A stretch of DNA of 6,073 nt from a virus (taxonomy: Duplodnaviria; Heunggongvirae; Uroviricota; Caudoviricetes): the IMG/VR virus record IMGVR_UViG_2534681736_000018; one strand, 5' to 3'. Positions 4,509-6,073 of this stretch are shown in pieces. How positions within the stretch are numbered: the stretch's first letter is position 1; each line of letters begins with the position of its first letter. The notes beneath the pieces are model-generated. The model did not search any database. It was not told the DNA's origin and worked only from the letters and a program-made list of their open reading frames with translations. Made by a program: the position numbers and the translations under genes.

Positions 4509-4870
4509 TATGCTCCAGCCTCCGGTGCTTTTGGCATTACTGCCCAGTGAGTGATATTGACGTTTTCAAGGTCCCCGACCTGAAATGTCCACTGCCATTC
4601 TCCGGTTTCTTTTTGTCCCCAGGTGTACCAGAGAGAACGCCAGCCAATTAGCCAGCCTTCTCCGTTAGCATCGAATAACAAAACACTTTCATTTGCTGGT
4701 GGCAGTTCAGTTGACACTGGTATTACTTTGTTTTCCTGTGCTGCACATTTAGCTTCAAGCGCATCGAATTTACGCACCAGGTATTCAGCATCTGTTTCAT
4801 TCACTTTCAGATCTCGCGGTACACATCTCCCACGAAGAAACCCTTCCATTTCGAAAACATTCATGCGCAT
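4508..4870 (-). CDS. DUF551-like prophage protein, 120 aa (reminiscent of CPS-53 YfdS; from memory)
   Basis: ORF 4508-4870 (-); C-terminal Trp-rich segment GWLIGWRSLWYTWGQKETGEWQWTFQ...ITHWAVMPKAPE resembles the DUF551 pattern common in enterobacterial prophages; GGAG 8 nt upstream of ATG 4870; overlaps the HD gene stop by 10 nt. An alternative ATG at 4864 is possible. Confidence 0.7.
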   Translation of the reverse strand: MRMNVFEMEGFLRGRCVPRDLKVNETDAEYLVRKFDALEAKCAAQENKVIPVSTELPPANESVLLFDANGEGWLIGWRSLWYTWGQKETGEWQWTFQVGDLENVNITHWAVMPKAPEAGA

Positions 4871-5397
4871 TTGCGTAACTCCGATAACTCGTTAAAACGT
4901 TCCATAAACATCCCGTAGGCATGGCCCGGTGCCTGTGGAATCACTTTGAACATCTCTGTTGCCGGGATACCTTCCAGTACAGGCCAGAAAGAGCCATCAT
5001 CAAGCCCGAGATCGCGGCGTTCGGTTGCCAGCATAATGAGATCGGCATATTTCACTGGCGTGCTCATAACAGGAGGTAACCCGTATTTCTCACGTATTAC
5101 GGCGTCTATTTTTTCTTCCATCCGTTTATAGTCAGGAAGAAGTCGTTTCAGTGGTGCGGGGATGTCCTGGCAATATGCTTCTGTTGCATCATGCATTAAA
5201 GCTTCAAAAGCAAATTCCTGTGGCACCAGCTGGCTGCAAAGCACCGCATGTTGGGCGACACTGTAGAAGTGTGAAAGATGTCCTGCAAAGCGACAGATAT
5301 TTGAAAGGGAAACCGCGATATCGTTAATAACGATGTCGTCTTTATTTATCCTGTCATAATAAAAATGCTTCCCGGAAAAAGTTTTAATAAATGACAT
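4861..5397 (-). CDS. HD-domain phosphohydrolase, YfbR/YfdR-like 5'-deoxynucleotidase family, 178 aa from ATG 5397 (187 aa if from 5424)
   Basis: ORF 4861-5424 (-); motifs HFYSVAQHAVL (His) and LMHDATEAYCQDIPAPLK (HD) parallel the YfbR motifs (...HSLQVAMVAH..., YHDASEVLTGDLPTPVK) as I recall them; the start at 5397 has GGAGAA 6 nt upstream, whereas 5424 lacks a clear RBS. Confidence 0.8.
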   Translation of the reverse strand: MSFIKTFSGKHFYYDRINKDDIVINDIAVSLSNICRFAGHLSHFYSVAQHAVLCSQLVPQEFAFEALMHDATEAYCQDIPAPLKRLLPDYKRMEEKIDAVIREKYGLPPVMSTPVKYADLIMLATERRDLGLDDGSFWPVLEGIPATEMFKVIPQAPGHAYGMFMERFNELSELRKCA

Positions 5398-5521
5398 TTT
5401 GTTCTCCACGTATATGCGCTGCACCGCGCTGAATTCGGGTAAAAGGAAGCCCTCACCGTCCGGCGATTATTGAGTCAATTACATTTCCATAAATGCCCCC
5501 GTAGGGGCGGTTAGTTTCTCC

Positions 5522-5610
5522 ACAAAACAGAGAAGAACACCTGCGGTGGCAGCCGCCCGGATGGATTGGGTTATGAGCCCGTCGTCCGGTGATGCTCTTC
5601 TCTGTTTTGT
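5522..5610. repeat. Perfect 15-bp inverted repeat (ACAAAACAGAGAAGA / TCTTCTCTGTTTTGT) enclosing a 59-nt GC-rich interior
   Basis: Arms at 5522-5536 and 5596-5610 are exact reverse complements; the interior contains nested GC stems (e.g. GCGG...CCGC at 5543-5556). Confidence 0.9.
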
Positions 5611-5618
5611 AAAAAGGA

Positions 5619-5655
5619 CGGTACCAGCCGGAAGCAAGGGTACAAGCTGGTACCG
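5619..5655. repeat. Perfect 10-bp inverted repeat hairpin (CGGTACCAGC / GCTGGTACCG), 17-nt loop; on the minus strand it is followed by UCCUUUUUA (terminator-like)
   Basis: Arms at 5619-5628 and 5646-5655 are exact reverse complements; plus-strand 5610-5618 is TAAAAAGGA, so a minus-strand transcript would have a U-rich tract immediately 3' of the stem. Confidence 0.85.
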
Positions 5656-5910
5656 CTAAGACTACACACAGCATAAAGTTGTGGTGCCGGGTGCCTCCCG
5701 GTGCCTGGCGAAGGTTGCACACCAGGCGGGTGGGTATCCACAGAAGGTCGACTGTCAGCCTCAACCTTAACCCGCGTGCGCTGAGCCGCATTCACCACAA
5801 CGCTAAGGATTCTCTCTGGTTGAAAATACTTAGCTGTTATGTGCCTGTCTTTTCACCACTTCAGGCTCGGTGGTATCCTTTTAAGCCCGTATACATAAAA
5901 GGAAAATCAA

Positions 5911-6045
5911 ATGACTTTTGATGAAAAAGAACTTGATAATGCAATTAATAAAATCATCGTAACGTCGCTCTTTTCCTGTCTCAGCGACACTCAGCAAAAA
6001 CAGTTTGAACCGCCCCGGGTTTCCTGGAGAGTGTTTTATCTGTGA
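5911..6045 (+). CDS. Small ORF, 44 aa (MTFDEKELDNAINKIIVTSLFSCLSDTQQKQFEPPRVSWRVFYL), divergent from the phage operon; uncertain whether it is a real gene or a remnant
   Basis: ATG at 5911 preceded by AAAAGGAAAA (RBS-like) 6-7 nt upstream; TGA at 6043-6045; below the ORF-track threshold; no recognisable family. Confidence 0.3.
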   Translation: MTFDEKELDNAINKIIVTSLFSCLSDTQQKQFEPPRVSWRVFYL

Positions 6046-6073
6046 ACTCAGGCTGCCAGATCATCGTTTCCGA

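Follow-up and report, generated by a model that had tools for sequence, protein, structure and literature searches.

DicF is among the oldest known bacterial small RNAs (sRNAs). STnc100, a prophage RNA of obscure function, occurs in multiple copies and is linked to Shiga-toxin phages. The 53-nt form of DicF arises by Rho-independent termination inside its operon and maturation of the 5′ end by RNase E, a 72-nt form results from RNase III cleavage of transcripts that read through into downstream genes, and the RNA is bound by Hfq and pairs with its targets through both its 5′ and its 3′ parts (PMC9438474, PMC5069750). It is a proven regulator (PMC5069750). Canonical STnc100 copies are ~235/247-nt Hfq-associated RNAs (PMC4104026; bioRxiv 10.64898/2026.05.13.724894). 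The Sp5 copy (EcOnc27) was seen as a ~235/247-nt RNA on Northern blots, and its Hfq cross-link peak of 80 nt (Sakai 1268411-1268490) appears to lie at the 3′ end, beside the convergent EcOnc02 (PMC4104026 supplement). We found no literature linking STnc100 with DicF, and the preprint on Pas RNAs and STnc100 (bioRxiv 10.64898/2026.05.13.724894) is silent on DicF. The hairpin described here resembles both RNAs, and we consider it probable that it forms the stem-loop and Rho-independent terminator of a DicF-type sRNA embedded in the leftward early operon of a prophage.

The stretch of DNA analyzed (the window, 6,073 nt) matches E. coli O157:H7 chromosomes and phage SfV. It contains proB, proA and the tRNA-Thr gene thrW (2723-2798), followed by prophage genes on the minus strand that encode an integrase, an excisionase-like HTH protein, YfdT, a DUF551 protein and the HD-domain 5′-deoxynucleotidase YfdR. 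The window is the proBA-thrW region of an O157-type E. coli with a defective SfV/e14-like prophage integrated at thrW. A preliminary description of this DNA had suggested that the hairpin might insulate an operon with an HD-domain gene, and the operon in which it sits does contain yfdR. The non-coding stretch is assigned to the leftward early operon because, in both SfV and O157 strain FRIK944, it is found downstream of a cI-like repressor gene on the same strand; the RNA module has the same placement relative to this repressor gene as dicF has relative to dicA. The operon is also marked by a 35-nt segment (Table 1) that in lambda, P22 and HK620 lies just upstream of the sieB promoter, between N or gene 24 and ral. 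The same segment is common to Stx phages, its plus strand holds a terminator-like hairpin (ACCACTTCAGGCTCGGTGGT + ATCCTTTT), and in the minus-strand minimum free energy (MFE) fold its 3′ half pairs with the DicF-like leader.

Several further features of the surroundings were recorded. A plus-strand ORF at 5911-6044 (MTFDEKELDNAINKII...) occupies a sieB-like position opposite the early operon and is truncated at ~6006 by an IS3-family element, an insertion that O157 strains such as FRIK944 do not carry. The deletion junction (5425-5513) holds a G+C-rich hairpin (5494-5509), a terminator-like site on the plus strand according to the scan, and the yfdP/yfdQ deletion variant recurs in several viral contigs. 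The 'putative terminator' annotated in SfV is a different, A+T-rich hairpin, corresponding to about 5891-5923 in the window when mapped by offset without direct alignment. Outside the window, the rightward immunity region of SfV (L001 6964-7152) carries an isrK and C4 antisense-RNA pair (64 and 82 bits), the P1/P7-type RNA immunity module that is matured by RNase P.

Table 1. Features of the RNA module and its surroundings; positions refer to the window unless a phage locus is named.
Feature	Position	Strand	Basis
STnc100-like structured domain	5678..5831	-	Rfam RF02076 match, inverted repeat
Helix closing the STnc100-like domain, GUUGUGGUG / CACCACAAC, with conserved CACCGGGAGGCACCCGGCACCA within	5801..5793 / 5686..5678	-	
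Candidate RNase E site AAC/UUUAU	5′ edge of leader 5658..5677	-	processing proposed by analogy with DicF (PMC9438474, PMC5069750)
G/U-rich single-stranded leader UUUAUGCUGUGUGUAGUCUU, candidate seed of DicF-like sRNA	5658..5677	-	same leader before differing stems in many phages
Stem-loop of DicF-like sRNA	5619..5655	-	repeat finder, fold, R1 match, covariation
Parts of the hairpin RNA: 5′ arm; loop (CUUGUACCCUUGCUUCC core); 3′ arm	5655..5646; 5645..5629; 5628..5619	-	
U-rich tail UCCUUUUUAC, putative terminator tract and presumed Hfq-binding 3′ end	5609..5618	-	U run 5615..5611
Element 2, stem with 25-nt arms (5522-5546/5586-5610)	5522..5610	-	repeat finder, compensatory changes
Near-invariant apical sequence of element 2, GACGGGCUCAUAACCCAAUCCAUC	5583..5560	-	
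Conserved GGAGAAAC immediately after element 2	5514..5521	-	
yfdR (HD-domain 5′-deoxynucleotidase), first gene downstream in this deletion variant	4861..5397	-	
Segment common to lambda, P22 and HK620; marks early-left operon	5840..5874	-	35 nt, 94% identity
End of multicopy IS3-family (IS629-like) element	6006..6073		O157 match ends at 6005; rest annotated IS3 family transposase
tRNA-like cloverleaf, phage locus L095	1077-1203	-	
tRNA-like cloverleaf, phage locus L078	1800-1925	+	
tRNA-like cloverleaf, phage locus L089	4364-4488	-	

The hairpin had been reported as a perfect 10-bp stem with a 17-nt loop and a U-rich tract 3′ of it on the minus strand, and both features are present as described. 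The repeat finder returns exactly these arms (CGGTACCAGC/GCTGGTACCG at 5619-5628/5646-5655, 10 nt, 100% complementary, 17 nt apart), and the tail follows at once. In the minus-strand fold the stem grows to 12 pairs by one G-U pair at each end (to 5657/5617) and the loop shrinks to 15 nt, giving a stable G+C-rich stem of 10 perfect pairs, 7 of them G-C, plus the 2 G-U. The 61-nt minus-strand RNA that encloses it (5660..5600) has a predicted fold of -20.9 kcal/mol against a mean of -11.4 for shuffles of the same stretch (z -3.65; a fold as stable in 2 of 200). Taken by itself the repeat carries little weight, because about 10% of shuffled windows hold one (99 of 1000 dinucleotide shuffles had a perfect 10-bp inverted repeat with a loop of 3-20 nt), but the combination of a 10-bp repeat with an adjacent run of five T arose in none of 1000. 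Near the stem base, CC is followed by UUUUU on the minus strand only, and there is no T run beyond the hairpin on the plus strand. The hairpin is not listed by a simple consensus terminator scan of the window because its loop exceeds the 8-nt limit of that scan; at 15-17 nt the loop lies outside the 3-8 nt typical of intrinsic terminators, and DicF, an accepted terminator, likewise has a long interrupted upper stem and loop. Relative to the family consensus GGCGG/CCGCC two basal pairs are weakened, to A-C and G-U, which should lower the efficiency of termination.

The decisive support for the hairpin comes from comparison with related sequences. The Rfam STnc100 model (RF02076) aligns end to end (model positions 1-206) with 5831..5609 on the minus strand at 43.0 bits (E 5.3e-7), below its gathering cut-off of 47 bits. 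Its terminal hairpin and UUUaU tail align on the 5619-5655 hairpin and its tail, and the full architecture is present: outer helix, UGGUGAAU, CACCGGGAGGCACCCGGCACCA, and terminal hairpin with UUUUUAC. That the model ends exactly on the hairpin supports the earlier suggestion of a minus-strand terminator or non-coding RNA 3′ end. The proposed start of this RNA near 5900 was not supported, as the scan of the window found no sigma-70-like promoter site there on the minus strand upstream of the hairpin and the structured RNA begins at ~5831. By analogy with DicF the RNA is probably made from the upstream early-left transcript and then processed, so that its size, first put at 250-300 nt, would be either ~223 nt or ~66-70 nt. 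The 401-nt stretch 5880..5480, which spans the STnc100-like domain, the hairpin and the long-stem element that follows (element 2), has an MFE z of -7.4.

STnc100, which is identical to EcOnc27 and related to PasD, shares with the locus a prophage-borne, multicopy character and the full-length match with its UUUUUAC tail. The two differ in position. Canonical copies lie in the late region, past Q or stx, and converge on AsxR/AgvB-type sRNAs; that of phage 933W (207.7 bits) is downstream of stx2B and converges on AsxR. The window copy, in contrast, belongs to the early-left operon, with element 2 next to it in the same orientation; it is not past Q or a moron and not convergent with an AsxR/AgvB-type sRNA. 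A further difference is that our covariance model of the hairpin (R1, below) does not match the canonical 933W terminator.

Resemblance to DicF was examined with model R1. Its training set comprised 12 DicF-like hairpins, K-12 DicF among them; none has the loop of the window, and some have its leader and lower stem. R1 matches 5677..5607 on the minus strand at 48.8 bits (E ~2e-9 by a rough calibration; next match 7 bits), thereby placing a leader, a GGCGG/CCGCC-based stem-loop and CUUUUU in series, and scores 7.3 bits on the plus strand of the hairpin palindrome. For the e14 hairpin of K-12, which has the leader and lower stem of the window, R1 gives 67.6 bits and the Rfam DicF model 28.5 bits (E 2.6e-4). 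On the window itself that model (RF00039) gives only 13.5 bits (E 1.5) at 5616-5670 on the minus strand, short of its gathering cut-off of 48 bits, and on this score we rejected filing the hairpin as a member of the Rfam DicF family. The low score is mainly due to the longer and different loop; weak Rfam DicF matches of 29 bits fall on the equivalent hairpin in two phage loci, L089 and L078. HnrS is a different sRNA, of the late region.

The placement of the hairpin adds to this comparison. In K-12 Qin a domain closed by GUUGUGG...CAAC precedes DicF, in Stx2c phages the same domain (~90% identity, judged by eye in the alignment) precedes a hairpin of the window type, and the shared domain argues for positional homology of the two hairpins. 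Like DicF of Qin dicBF, the hairpin is encoded on the operon strand within a lambdoid early operon close to the repressor gene, after a GUUGUGG...CAAC domain and a short G/U-rich leader, with a GGCGG...CCGCC-based stem-loop, a C/U-rich loop and CUUUUU. It differs from DicF in the leader sequence, in a different and longer upper stem and loop, in the absence of a loop complementary to ftsZ, and in its downstream partner, which is a long-stem element with yfdP/yfdR-type genes in place of dicB. Judged by sequence and position together, the hairpin is a homologue of the DicF stem-loop and terminator of Qin. It is homologous to the 3′ end of STnc100 too, yet it falls below both Rfam cut-offs and departs from the two in leader, loop and neighbors, and from STnc100 also in its place in the operon. 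Between dicF and dicB of K-12 Qin, the untranslated stretch (L133 2433-2642) itself holds an STnc100-like domain (Rfam 34.4 bits, E 6e-5), followed by dicB; the 3′ end of the reported RNase III-dependent 72-nt DicF would map to the outer helix of that domain.

Variation among homologues indicates that the structure is maintained as RNA. A MAFFT alignment of 12 variants has 90% of its cells paired and double-sided changes in 5 of 11 pairs; its covariation score was reached by none of 500 shuffles, and pairing in slid controls is 38-64%. Among 86 model-aligned matches (44 distinct) 94% are paired and 7 of 11 pairs show double-sided changes, in an alignment that is biased towards structure by having been fitted to the model. 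CUUUUU after the stem is kept in 43 of the 44 distinct homologues. The covariation of the stem and the retained U tract point to the minus strand, as the preliminary description had proposed. These data also bear on whether the palindrome acts as DNA, as a protein-binding or recombination site or a cruciform, an idea that appeals to the symmetry of the repeat, which forms on both strands, and to the two KpnI-type (GGTACC) palindromes inside it. We regard it as very improbable: the conserved flanks are asymmetric, with a T run on one side and the leader on the other, G-U pairs are tolerated only in the minus-strand reading (GU:10-11 at two positions), R1 discriminates between the strands (48.8 against 7.3 bits), and stem sequences differ wholly between phages while pairing is kept.

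Equally remote is the proposal that the region is a small protein-coding ORF. Minus-strand ORFs do run from 5453..5791 and 5571..5798, the e14 homologue is annotated as ymfH and the O157 annotation lists a 'frameshifted hypothetical protein', but the frameshift is flagged by PGAP itself, SfV has no annotated CDS there, and loop indels among the homologues are not in multiples of three (12, 13, 15, 16, 18, 19, 39, 42, 43, 47 nt). The compensatory substitutions in the RNA stems and RNA-model matches with E values down to 1e-13 also speak against it. In K-12 e14 the same module lies inside the annotated ymfH ORF, which is probably a mis-annotated non-coding region; we found no literature on any RNA or sRNA at ymfH/e14. 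In that prophage (L137, NC_000913.3 ~1,201,080-1,201,460, minus strand) ymfH covers most of the module, comprising the 3′ STnc100-like part, the DicF-like hairpin and element 2.

The module is widespread and its order is modular. Viral contigs scanned with element 2 as anchor yielded more than 100 loci with many hairpin variants, in which the DicF-like hairpin occurs as one match per locus, always immediately 5′ of element 2. Across phages the order is a GUUGUGG...CCACAAC-closed domain with variable interior, the hairpin, whose sequence varies while pairing is maintained, an invariant CYUUUUUAC and element 2. The 71-nt unit is matched in 2764 of 5426 complete E. coli genomes, with a best match of at least 95% identity in 1080 records; the K-12 CPS-53 prophage does not contain the module. 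Locus L015 has a second DicF-like hairpin upstream.

By analogy with DicF we infer termination, processing, Hfq binding and a trans-acting function for the RNA. Transcription would start at a repressor-controlled early promoter, presumably to the right of the window, and proceed leftward on the minus strand through the STnc100-like domain (5831..5678), the leader (5677..5658), the stem-loop (5657..5617) and the U tract (5615..5611). At the U tract some of the polymerases would stop to give an RNA of ~223 nt, which RNase E could trim at the A/U-rich junction after CCACAAC to ~66-70 nt, as in DicF. Hairpin and U tail would then bind Hfq and stabilize a base-pairing sRNA at its 3′ end, and the likely pairing surfaces would be the leader and the C/U-rich loop of 15-17 nt. 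Polymerases that read through, for example by antitermination on induction, would copy element 2 (5610..5522), a likely RNase III site, and enter the early genes, here yfdR ... xis, int. The preliminary description had offered an RNA 3′ end and an insulator of the operon as alternatives; both roles seem to apply, as in DicF, and the choice between them falls away.

Comparable arrangements are found in intra-operonic or 3′-UTR-derived sRNAs such as SroC and CpxQ, in which an internal intrinsic terminator is the sRNA 3′ end and RNase E trimming makes the 5′ end (PMC9438474), as would be the case here; they derive from core-genome mRNAs, whereas the precursor here would be the long non-coding leader of a prophage operon. 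Terminators of the lambda tL/tR class are likewise internal to an operon expressed on derepression, and the module adjoins the segment shared with the lambda/P22 N-sieB-ral region. It is unlike lambda terminators in sequence, and we identified no N/nut system here. Conservation of the leader and loop suggests that the RNA product has a function of its own.

The last comparison raises the question of whether the hairpin is purely a cis-acting attenuator, an early-left (tL-type) terminator that keeps the downstream genes silent until antitermination and whose RNA has no role in trans. Its position in a lambdoid early operon beside the lambda/P22 N-ral segment and the second terminator-like long stem that follows are in keeping with this, and so is the behavior of the loop towards ftsZ. 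Full-length duplexes with ftsZ discriminate nothing, and loop-only duplexes were used instead: the loops of K-12 DicF and variant L029 pair with ftsZ over -24..0, whereas the window loop alone shows no pairing with the ftsZ ribosome-binding site (best duplex -35..-18, z -0.27), and on this ground targeting of ftsZ by the window allele is rejected. A search for cis targets of the leader within the window returned only its match to itself. The Hfq-CRAC table of Tree et al. lists no Hfq-bound sRNA in Sp1, and no EcOnc sRNA there (PMC4104026). Against a purely cis-acting role, the single-stranded leader UGCUGUGUGUAGUCUU recurs 5′ of differing stems in many phages and a bare terminator has no need of it, 39 of 44 distinct loops keep C/U-rich anti-Shine-Dalgarno-like tetramers, and the homologues DicF and STnc100/EcOnc27 are Hfq-bound, DicF being a proven regulator (PMC5069750, PMC4104026). 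We therefore consider attenuation in cis alone possible but doubtful, and favor the reading as a DicF-type sRNA with its terminator.

Whether this particular copy is active is a separate matter. It may be poorly expressed or decaying, since the minus strand lacks a promoter-like site ahead of the module and an IS element is located 175 nt upstream of it. An account in which the element is a relic, inherited from a functional ancestor and unused in this defective prophage because it is untranscribed or a poor terminator, would draw on this IS insertion at ~6006, which in this strain separates the module from the repressor and early-promoter side, and on the loss of yfdP and yfdQ (SfV orf32 and orf31) from between element 2 and yfdR relative to SfV. 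The weakened basal pairs (A-C, G-U), the lack of a local promoter and the empty Sp1 entry in the Hfq-CRAC table fit as well. The unit is nevertheless found in about half of the complete E. coli genomes, with identity of 95% or more in the 1080 records noted above, its stem is still perfect over 10 bp (-20.9 kcal/mol for the 61-nt stretch), and the STnc100-like domain still covers the full Rfam model. Decay is a tentative explanation that we think somewhat unlikely.

Element 2 always directly follows the DicF-like terminator. The preliminary description had noted a 15-bp hairpin beside the first one; a hairpin is indeed there, although it is larger than stated, with 25-nt arms (5522-5546 and 5586-5610) that are 84% complementary. 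Compensatory changes occur in its long stem (CG/GC in 8 sequences, AU/GC in 3 and 3, CG/AU in 2), and its near-invariant apical part spans ~45 nt, with homologues in L001, L006-L010, L012-L131 and L137. Of 5426 complete E. coli genomes, 2809 contain element 2, for which Rfam has no matching family. Because the 25-nt arms form a near-continuous duplex, element 2 is a plausible candidate for an RNase III substrate, or possibly a second terminator. Its apical loop has 14 consecutive nt in common with the anticodon stem-loop of initiator tRNA (metZ) (CGGGCUCAUAACCC; CGGGCTCATAACCC), a score reached by 2 of 2000 shuffles in a comparison made post hoc. The apical motif is also found in late-operon tRNA arrays: in Klebsiella phage RCIP0098 (L005 1501-1551) it occurs as GAUGACGGGCUCAUAAUCCAAUCCAUC directly after two tRNA genes, downstream of Q, and lacks the long stem.

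A resemblance to tRNA extends to the first domain in some phages. Rfam calls the GUUGUGG...CCACAAC domain a tRNA in three phage loci (29.5-43.9 bits), and ARAGORN, with an intron of 44-46 nt allowed, reports tRNA-Met(CAT) or tRNA-Glu(CTC) in the domains of L095, L078 and L089 (Table 1). At the position that corresponds to the T-arm of these loci the window (5678-5801) has CCGGGAGGCACCCGG+CA+CCACAAC. Within the window ARAGORN and Rfam find thrW as the only tRNA; the STnc100-like body and element 2 yield no tRNA call even with introns, and calls at relaxed ARAGORN thresholds are noise. These observations suggest that STnc100-like and Qin-type domains fill a slot that is derived from, or exchangeable with, a tRNA-like gene. 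In L009, L006, L010, L015 and L078 a further long stem, element 0 (CACAACGAUGAGAGCAUUG...CAGUGCUCUCUUCGUUGUGG), lies 200-400 nt upstream of the DicF-like hairpin; its arms resemble those of element 2 and it contains internal T-arm-like hairpins (GGUUCGAUUCC, GUCCGUUCAAUUCGGAC), so that the region resembles related units arrayed in tandem.

A speculative extension, which we hold to be distinctly improbable, is that lambdoid early operons carry a widespread, previously undescribed three-part RNA cassette of tRNA origin: a variable GUUGUGG/CCACAAC-closed domain, a DicF-type sRNA and an initiator-tRNA-like element. The first part would have an acceptor-like helix, enclosing a tRNA-like cloverleaf with a 44-64 nt insert in some phages and the STnc100-like domain here. 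If this were true, the tRNA-like parts could direct processing by RNases P, E and III to release sRNAs, or alternatively could be mimics or decoys for factors that recognize initiator tRNA, and STnc100 and DicF would be parts of one evolving tRNA-derived system and not separate families.

More directly, the locus joins DicF and STnc100 in one modular architecture. About half of complete E. coli genomes carry a diverged, unannotated unit that appears to be of DicF type. K-12 is among them, its e14 copy being recorded as the protein gene ymfH. The e14 copy would provide a tractable K-12 model in which to study early-operon attenuation, sRNA targets and processing. For annotation, the results point to a class of probable sRNA/terminator units that is missed by current Rfam cut-offs.
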